This document shows positions 1-235 of a DNA stretch of 235 nucleotides, piece by piece. A program made the translations under genes and the position numbers. Positions within the stretch are counted from its first letter, which is position 1. Each line of letters starts with the position of its first letter. The notes under the pieces were generated by a model that saw only the letters and a program-made list of their open reading frames with translations, did not search any database and was not told where the DNA came from. Source of the DNA: Escherichia coli (GTDB taxonomy: Bacteria > Pseudomonadota > Gammaproteobacteria > Enterobacterales > Enterobacteriaceae); the NCBI RefSeq assembly GCF_003334385.1, contig NZ_QOWN01000225.1; one strand, 5' to 3'.

Positions 1-6
1 GCAGAT

Positions 7-42
7 GCCTGATGCGACGCTAACGCGTCTTATCAGGCCTAC
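7..42 (+). repeat. REP palindromic unit, Z-like (GCCTGATGCG type), complete
   Basis: Direct: stem arm 7-20 GCCTGATGCGACGC pairs with arm 25-38 GCGTCTTATCAGGC (reverse complement GCCTGATAAGACGC) around loop 21-24 TAAC. The arms match except for the central dinucleotide (GC versus AA), the asymmetric mismatch typical of REPs. The unit ends with the conserved GGCCTAC head at 36-42. Confidence 0.88.
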
Positions 43-59
43 AAATTCCCGCGCCATCC

Positions 60-93
60 GTAGGCCGGATAAGGCGTTTACGCCGCATCCGGC
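60..93 (-). repeat. REP palindromic unit, Y-like (GCCGGATGCG type), complete, inverted relative to the preceding unit
   Basis: Direct: GTAG head at 60-63; stem arm 64-76 GCCGGATAAGGCG pairs with arm 81-93 CGCCGCATCCGGC (reverse complement GCCGGATGCGGCG) around loop 77-80 TTTA, with the same GC/AA central mismatch. Read on the minus strand it is GCCGGATGCGGCGTAAACGCCTTATCCGGCCTAC. Confidence 0.88.
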
Positions 94-107
94 AGTCGTG
101 CGCAGAT

Positions 108-143
108 GCCTGATGCGACGCTAACGCGTCTTATCAGGCCTAC
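108..143 (+). repeat. REP palindromic unit, Z-like, second copy
   Basis: Direct: identical to 7-42 at all 36 positions, offset by 101 bp. Confidence 0.88.
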
Positions 144-160
144 AAATTCTCGCGCCACCC

Positions 161-194
161 GTAGGCCGGATAAGGCGTTCACGCCGCATCCGGC
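161..194 (-). repeat. REP palindromic unit, Y-like, second copy
   Basis: Direct: identical to 60-93 except one loop substitution (180 c versus 79 t; loop TTCA versus TTTA). Both stem arms are unchanged. Confidence 0.88.
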
Positions 195-208
195 AGTCGT
201 GCGCAGAT

Positions 209-235
209 GCCTGATGCGACGCTAACGCGTCTTAT
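209..235 (+). repeat. REP palindromic unit, Z-like, third copy, truncated by the window edge
   Basis: Direct: 209-235 gcctgatgcgacgctaacgcgtcttat matches the first 27 nt of 7-42 exactly; the remaining 9 nt would lie beyond position 235. Confidence 0.8.

Follow-up and report, generated by a model that had tools for sequence, protein, structure and literature searches.

A stretch of Escherichia coli DNA that is repetitive from its first letter to its last raises three questions: what kind of repeat it is, where in the chromosome it lies, and whether the number of its copies makes a difference to the genes on either side. The stretch considered here, called the window in the following, is 235 nucleotides long. 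REP and BIME-2 arrays have been described since about 1990, and the window is an ordinary, already known BIME-2 array, both as a class and as a specific array. The joint explanation that we propose, and that we hold with high confidence, is that the window is the interior of the BIME-2 array lying between the E. coli genes mhpE and mhpT, an array that changes in place and that has putative roles both as RNA and as DNA.

Anatomy of the repeat

Tandem Repeats Finder describes positions 1-235 as one tandem array of period 101, with 2.3 copies, 97% matches, no indels and a score of 449. The window contains two full units of 101 bp and 33 nt of a third, or 2.33 copies: its first 33 nt are found in three exact copies, starting at positions 1, 102 and 203. 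A preliminary description, made from the letters of the window, had spoken of three successive 101-bp copies; the period stands, and the count is slightly generous. The two full units, 1-101 and 102-202, are 97% identical, with mismatches at three positions only, namely 49, 57 and 79.

Each unit is built, in this order, from a 36-nt Y REP (GCCTGATGCGACGCTAACGCGTCTTATCAGGCCTAC), a 17-nt linker (AAATTCCCGCGCCATCC), a 34-nt Z2 REP in the opposite orientation (GTAGGCCGGATAAGGCGTTYACGCCGCATCCGGC) and a 14-nt linker (AGTCGTGCGCAGAT). The exact Y and Z2 patterns occur twice each in the window, against 0 expected from 200 shuffles. Table 1 gives the position of each component. Both edges cut into the repeat, as the preliminary description had it: position 1 falls in a 14-nt linker, which in K-12 is preceded by the bases ...CCGGCAGTCGTGT, and at position 235 the window stops within the third Y palindrome, in its 3' arm.

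Table 1. Repeat units, linkers and matches located in the 235-nt window.
Feature	Positions	Strand	Remarks
14-nt linker AGTCGTGCGCAGAT, 3' part GCAGAT	1-6		joins the non-GTAG ends of Z2 REP and Y REP
Y-type REP no. 1, GCCTGATGCGACGCTAACGCGTCTTATCAGGCCTAC	7-42	-	exact pattern; CTAC at 3' end of + strand, GTAG-5' orientation on - strand
IS621 natural target ATCAGGCCTAC, core CT at 39-40	32-42	+	target sequence per PMC11208160
17-nt linker AAATTCCCGCGCCATCC	43-59		between CTAC end of Y and GTAG end of Z2
Z2-type REP no. 1, GTAGGCCGGATAAGGCGTTTACGCCGCATCCGGC	60-93	+	exact pattern; GTAG at 5' end of + strand
14-nt linker AGTCGTGCGCAGAT	94-107		repeat map
Y-type REP no. 2	108-143	-	exact pattern; second IS621 target motif at 133-143
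17-nt linker, variant AAATTCTCGCGCCACCC	144-160		repeat map
Z2-type REP no. 2, loop variant GTTCAC	161-194	+	exact pattern
14-nt linker AGTCGTGCGCAGAT	195-208		repeat map
Y-type REP no. 3, 27 of 36 nt present, cut at window edge	209-235	-	repeat copy
Z2-linker-Y pair, end-to-end match to naRNA4 (RF02564)	63-140	+	87.2 bits; further partial match at 164-235

The array lies between mhpE and mhpT

Matches of 100% identity to the window are found in E. coli chromosomes, and in 540 records its best match is at least 99% identical. In MG1655 it corresponds to positions 375,091-375,325 on the minus strand, that is, to their reverse complement. A database search, of the sort that the preliminary description proposed for finding the locus and its neighbours, places the array between mhpE, the gene of 4-hydroxy-2-oxovalerate aldolase, and mhpT, the gene of the 3-hydroxyphenylpropionate transporter: the match falls in this spacer in all four records inspected (J53, 300709, 2013C-4991 and MG1655). 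The two genes are co-oriented. The + strand of the window is antisense to both of them, and the mhp mRNA carries the - strand. Within at most 3 kb on either side of the array, the genes are fghA, yaiL, mhpT, mhpE, mhpF, mhpD and mhpC; the same locus is also found on an F' plasmid record (H32).

In K-12 the mhpE-mhpT spacer is 577 bp long, and the array takes up 444 bp of it (L001 2961-3404; MG1655 374,922-375,365). It consists of 4.4 units with nine REPs, five of type Z2 and four of type Y. Past the window it runs for 40 bp toward mhpT, with one degenerate Z2 REP and the rest of a linker, and for 169 bp toward mhpE. The preliminary description predicted such a continuation, as opposed to unique sequence beginning at both borders, and it is what we find in every 100%-matching genome examined: the repeat goes on at both sides, for 40 bp on the left and for 68 or 169 bp on the right. 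The same 235 nt are present in strain 2013C-4991 inside a 3.4-unit array, a 7-REP allele. They fit a 9-REP allele (K-12) as well as this 7-REP allele, the only two alleles in which the exact window was found, so that the window alone is compatible with either length of the source array.

A consensus scan of the region (L001 2600-3700) found no sigma-70 promoter consensus in the spacer, and the sole terminator-like match in the same region falls inside the mhpT coding sequence. A literature search for published work on mhpT transcription gave nothing useful.

Copy-number variation within E. coli

The alleles of the locus were surveyed with a 1001-bp query made of flank, array and flank, by taking 60 records at even steps through the 5,473 records that match it. 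The sizes of the classes are estimates from this 60-row sample, and the base-by-base check bears on class representatives only. Nine REPs are found in the 13 rows with a span of 1001 bp, seven in the single row of 900 bp, five in the four rows of 799-801 bp, three in the six rows of 698 bp, and one in the 28 rows of 599-603 bp; the locus is broken by an insertion sequence in one row, and missing in seven. Spacers of 175/179, 274, 375/377, 476 and 577 bp correspond to 1, 3, 5, 7 and 9 REPs. The commonest E. coli allele is a single Z2 REP, carried by about half of the sampled genomes, and no E. coli allele with more than nine REPs appears in the even 60-row sample.

The alleles differ by whole Y+Z2 units and their unique flanks are constant, as mapped on one representative per class. 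The variation between strains that the preliminary description expected is indeed present, and takes the form of 1, 3, 5, 7 or 9 REPs at the mhpE-mhpT locus: the array has expanded and contracted in place in steps of whole Y+Z2 units, so that E. coli has one to nine REPs. Slippage or unequal recombination among the 97%-identical copies, or strand exchange catalysed by TnpA(REP), probably accounts for the gain and loss of units.

A locus whose copy number varies in this way is able to break short-read assemblies, or to be given a wrong size by them. The preliminary description made a similar remark, for which we have one supporting example: a contig of Escherichia sp. E1V33 (L015, NZ_RHJI01000016.1, positions 1-199) ends inside the array, 199 nt upstream of mhpT and two REPs into the repeat.

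Classification

A REP is defined as an imperfect palindrome of 30-40 nt, with a conserved GTAG 5' of the foot of the stem and a mismatch within the stem (PMC3333891). The Y and Z2 units of the window are palindromes of this kind. They are also extragenic, and of high copy number in the genome: used as a query, the window finds a median of at least 38 places per E. coli genome, with matches in 5426 of 5426 genomes.

A BIME-2, in turn, combines y and z2 REPs that are inversely oriented and spaced by short linkers, in multiple tandem copies whose number varies between strains (PMC3333891). Here the Y and Z2 REPs alternate in inverse orientation, the Z unit being the one called Z2 in the REP325 array of E. 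coli; tandem copies are present, 2.3 of them within the window and 4.4 in the K-12 array; the linkers measure 17 and 14 nt, with no long L linker; and the record spans resolve to 9, 7, 5, 3 and 1 REPs. The units of the locus are also highly identical to one another, and no feature that defines the class is found to differ. The preliminary description, which named the window a REP/BIME array, is in agreement with this definition: the palindromic units alternate, are inversely oriented and are joined by short linkers. The IHF consensus WATCAANNNNTTR has no match on either strand, in the window or in the whole spacer, and its absence argues against BIME-1.

It had also been stated that the element belongs to a known class. 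This is true down to the array itself, which has been named 'REP between mhpE and mhpT' (PMC3161906). Its value as a discovery is small, the array having already been named in the adaptive-amplification literature.

The E. coli enzyme TnpA(REP) requires a 5' GTAG and a stem mismatch in its substrates, and recombines BIMEs in vitro (PMC3333891). The array resembles the substrates of TnpA(REP) (RAYT), also called REPINs: each REP of the window has the 5' GTAG and the stem mismatch, and inverted pairs can fold as one long hairpin. It differs from a REPtron, in that no tnpA(REP) gene lies next to it: none was found in the 6 kb inspected around the array.

Origin of the array

We now compare the locus with its counterparts in other species. 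A scan with MhpT, using one genome per species, yields 39 loci. No REP-like sequence is found in any of the 33 non-Escherichia loci with mhpE directly upstream of mhpT, whose spacers measure 68-173 bp (68-147 bp within the Enterobacteriaceae); the genera with REP-free spacers include Citrobacter, Klebsiella, Raoultella, Kluyvera, Enterobacter and Pseudocitrobacter. Among the loci of the scan, REPs are present in the mhpE-mhpT spacer of Escherichia only.

Two members of the genus have arrays of their own. Escherichia whittamii carries four REPs in 2.0 units of about 99 bp (L016 2224-2422). The strain named 'E. coli SCPM-O-B-8794', which is a cryptic Escherichia lineage with 95% MhpT identity, has a 682-bp spacer with 13 REPs, in 6.0 units of 91 bp (L017 1858-2409), and the CTAC-GTAG linker of its unit measures 8 nt: CTAC-GGGCCAAT-GTAG.

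Since the spacer is short and REP-free outside Escherichia, the entry of the REP is placed within Escherichia, with arrays expanding independently afterwards. A REP was thus inserted into an ancestrally short, REP-free spacer within the Escherichia lineage, and other Escherichia lineages have independently expanded arrays, each homogeneous in its own linkers. Independent expansion in place, with homogeneous linkers, is the behaviour described for BIME-2 (PMC3333891).

On its left, the E. coli array has a fixed flank (GCCTACGGGCGAAATGTAGG) that is similar to this short linker of the 91-bp unit. Judged by this likeness of sequence, the left flank looks like the remnant of a former Y REP, as the comparison suggests.

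One record falls outside the expected taxonomy. A 7.4-kb contig labeled 'MAG: Clostridiales bacterium W0P5.017' (L014, SFGO01000113.1) encodes MhpT and MhpE that are 100% identical to those of E. coli, together with the single-REP allele; almost certainly the contig belongs to E. coli and was placed in a Clostridiales metagenome-assembled genome by mis-binning.

Folding, and a possible role in the mhp transcript

Folded as RNA, the first Y REP of the window forms a hairpin of -21.4 kcal/mol on the + strand and -20.5 kcal/mol on the - strand, with an internal mismatch, and the first Z2 REP a hairpin of -19.5 (+) or -21.3 (-) kcal/mol. On either strand, the REPs have hairpins of -19.5 to -21.4 kcal/mol. 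The stems of these REP folds, 12-13 bp long, are broken by a mismatch of 1-2 nt, and GTAG and CTAC are unpaired. The Z2-linker-Y pair at 63-140 has an alternative fold, a single composite hairpin of -46.8 (+) or -50.8 (-) kcal/mol. As a whole, the window is much more strongly folded than shuffled sequence, with z = -8.6 for the - strand (the sense of the mRNA) and z = -6.7 for the + strand.

Among characterised arrays the closest relative is REP325, which E. coli K-12 carries between yjdM and yjdN and whose unit shows 88-91% identity to that of the window. The two share their architecture and their tandem-gene setting; the Z2 unit is the same in both, and the 17-nt linker (AAATTCCCGCACCATCC in REP325) nearly so. 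They differ in the length of the unit, 100 bp in REP325 versus 101 bp in the mhp array; in the number of units, 5.8 (12 hairpins) versus 4.4 (nine hairpins) in the K-12 mhp array; in the loop of the Y REP, TTGC versus TAAC; and in the second linker, AACGGTGCCAACT versus AGTCGTGCGCAGAT, which is the most divergent part of the unit. They also have opposite orientations with respect to transcription: the RNA-sense strand of REP325 corresponds to the + strand of the window, which is here the antisense strand.

A recent preprint reports that REP325 acts locally, protecting the upstream yjdM message and attenuating transcription into yjdN, partly via Rho (bioRxiv 10.64898/2026.03.23.713779). When REP325 is deleted, the ratio of yjdM to yjdN RNA drops from about 35 to about 1; a ladder of RNAs ending in hairpins, partially sensitive to bicyclomycin, arises from the array; and the effects of REPs are described as context dependent, half-lives not being uniformly lengthened (same preprint).

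By analogy, in transcripts that read through from mhpE, the REP hairpins would block 3'-to-5' exonucleases and so protect the upstream mhpABCDFE message, and the same hairpins would form a partial, partly Rho-dependent attenuator, lowering read-through into mhpT. Such a dual role, as an exonuclease barrier for the upstream mhp mRNA and as an attenuator of read-through into mhpT, is our best guess at the level of RNA because the arrangement mhpE-array-mhpT has the same topology as that of REP325, and we lean slightly in its favour. The inverted orientation relative to REP325 counts against the analogy, though it may be of little weight, since both REP orientations are present within every unit.

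Clearly, mhp function does not depend on a long array, because the commonest E. coli allele has one REP and the other genera have none. One could still conjecture that the series of one to nine REPs, with 13 in the cryptic lineage and 0 in other genera, is a strain-specific rheostat that sets both the read-through from mhpABCDFE into mhpT and the stability of the upstream message, a conjecture that we judge unlikely. If it were true, a change of copy number would be a fast, reversible and non-coding way of tuning the uptake of 3-hydroxyphenylpropionate against its catabolism. Whatever its effect, the natural series of 1, 3, 5, 7 and 9 hairpins in a fixed context can be used for testing the role of REP arrays as terminator plus stabiliser.

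The array as a DNA site

Lin et al. found the cluster 'REP between mhpE and mhpT' in 20% of the lac-amplification junctions that they list (PMC3161906). They attribute this hotspot to the secondary-structure potential of the REP cluster (PMC3161906). As DNA, such structure-prone repeats would promote template switching, unequal recombination and the insertion of IS621. We consider it likely that the array is a DNA site of this kind, promoting all three, the role as a hotspot of lac junctions being one that is published for this very array. The role at the level of DNA is better supported than the one at the level of RNA.

One strain carries a natural insertion of IS621. Both complete Y REPs of the window end in ATCAGGCCTAC, which is the published natural target of the bridge recombinase of IS621, a member of the IS110 family (PMC11208160); the window itself carries the target motif without an IS. 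In strain 4600 (L013, NZ_CM128560.1, about 1891-3170, with a CDS at 2083-3063), a copy of IS621 lies in the first Y REP of the array. Its junctions read ...TTATCAGGCCT^TGTATTATCC... and ...AACAGTATCT^ACAAATTCTC, which puts the element at the CT core of ATCAGGCCTAC, at the equivalent of window positions 39-40. The target motif is a property of Y REPs in general, and the array supplies natural target sites for the bridge recombinase.

BIME-2 elements are also enriched for transcription-independent cleavage by gyrase in vivo, mainly in their Y REPs (PMC6379681). Extending this property from other BIME-2 to the mhp array, the latter could be a site of transcription-independent gyrase binding and cleavage, a suggestion that we regard as plausible, though short of probable. 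The names mhpE and mhpT are absent from the searchable text of the supplement of that study, which neither supports nor refutes the suggestion.

Alternative explanations

The window could be taken for an RNA gene. The naRNA4 model of Rfam (RF02564), whose gathering score is 59.5 bits, matches it with 87.2 bits at 63-140 (+), 68.1 bits at 164-235 (+) and 62.0 bits on the - strand of the 63-140 segment, and the full K-12 spacer has six matches, four on the + strand and two on the - strand, all of which invites the reading that the array encodes naRNA4-like noncoding RNAs: two-hairpin Z2-Y molecules that bind HU, bridge cruciform DNA and condense the nucleoid. A nucleoid role for REP325 RNAs, and contacts among REPs, were proposed by Qian et al. 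in 2015 (PMC4550694). We find this reading highly improbable for the mhp array. The window matches because its unit resembles REP325, the source of naRNA4, which is a Z2-Y pair cut from it; the model being a simple, generic Z2-Y REP pair, any BIME-2 will therefore match, and it is only through the palindromic nature of the units that the - strand exceeds the threshold. The + strand, which scores best, runs antisense to mhpE and mhpT, and the spacer showed no promoter consensus. As for REP325 itself, the 2026 preprint, whose authors include the original senior author of the naRNA4 proposal, reports that the volume of the nucleoid is unchanged when REP325/naRNA4 is deleted or overexpressed, and that contacts between REPs are not long-range and do not depend on HU (bioRxiv 10.64898/2026.03.23.713779). 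With a generic model, both strands passing and a contested function, we rejected the match as evidence for a nucleoid RNA gene; and given that the strand with the best score lies antisense to its flanking genes and that the function of naRNA4 is disputed, the window is not filed as a naRNA4 gene.

Another possibility is that the array has no function in cis: a REP landed in the spacer, units came and went by slippage or by TnpA(REP), and the whole is a selfish or neutral repeat that measurably changes neither mhp expression nor the topology of the chromosome. The absence of the array from all the non-Escherichia genera with the same gene pair is consistent with it, as are the range from one to nine REPs within E. 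coli, where about half of the sampled genomes have one, the independent arrays of the sister lineages with their different linkers, and the reported context dependence of REP effects (bioRxiv 10.64898/2026.03.23.713779). Against it stands REP325: with units 88-91% identical to these and the same kind of place between tandem genes, it has strong measurable effects on both of its neighbours; moreover, it is improbable that exonucleases and RNA polymerase are unaffected by up to nine hairpins of about -20 kcal/mol in a spacer that is transcribed. On balance we think it plausible, though less likely than not, that the array is without effect. Far less credible still, to the point of being negligible, is the idea that the tandem duplication is an artefact of assembly or that small proteins are encoded in the window. 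Assembly errors are possible in repeat arrays, and there is one short-read contig that breaks off inside this array, but the identical 235 nt appear in many independently finished complete genomes, 540 records match at 99% or more, and the flanks are fixed around a regular series of alleles; the preliminary description had itself named an artefact of assembly as what would overturn it, and the finished genomes and the regular series exclude it. Coding of small proteins was rejected in turn. The window has five ORFs of 22-39 aa, but they are the repeated palindromes read as codons: the two of 39 aa (5-124 and 106-225) are the same sequence one unit apart, and the reading frame shifts from unit to unit because 101 is not a multiple of 3. 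The explanation that we retain is thus the real, in-place array of the mhpE-mhpT spacer, with the conditional roles described above.

In strain FDN-9 (NZ_CP158140.1, H36), the annotation of RefSeq has a 'hypothetical protein' that overlaps the REP array; this is probably a spurious call on a repeat-derived ORF.

A conserved hairpin next to the array

Outside the window, between the array and the start codon of mhpT, the spacer contains a conserved box, ATTCACCTGC, preceded by the hairpin GCGGCTG-GCAAYGTAT-CAGCCGC. The two lie at about 2897-2935 of L001 (MG1655 about 375,391-375,429; alignment columns 62-84), some 35-70 nt upstream of mhpT, and are present in nearly all of the Enterobacteriaceae examined. 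In the alignment of the hairpin, 94.6% of the cells are paired, compensatory changes are seen in four of the seven pairs, and 0 of 500 shuffles reach the observed values. The hairpin has no match in Rfam.

Going by this conservation, the hairpin and its box might be a control element specific to mhpT. If mhpT does have its own control element, the array may be an insulator between two transcription units, and not an attenuator within one operon.

Two genera have one more hairpin upstream: in Kluyvera this second hairpin shares the loop of the first, and in Pseudocitrobacter the loop of the additional hairpin is different. The box ATTCACCTGC loosely resembles the palindrome GGTGCACCTGGTGCAC of the mhpR-mhpA region (L053, about 953-969).
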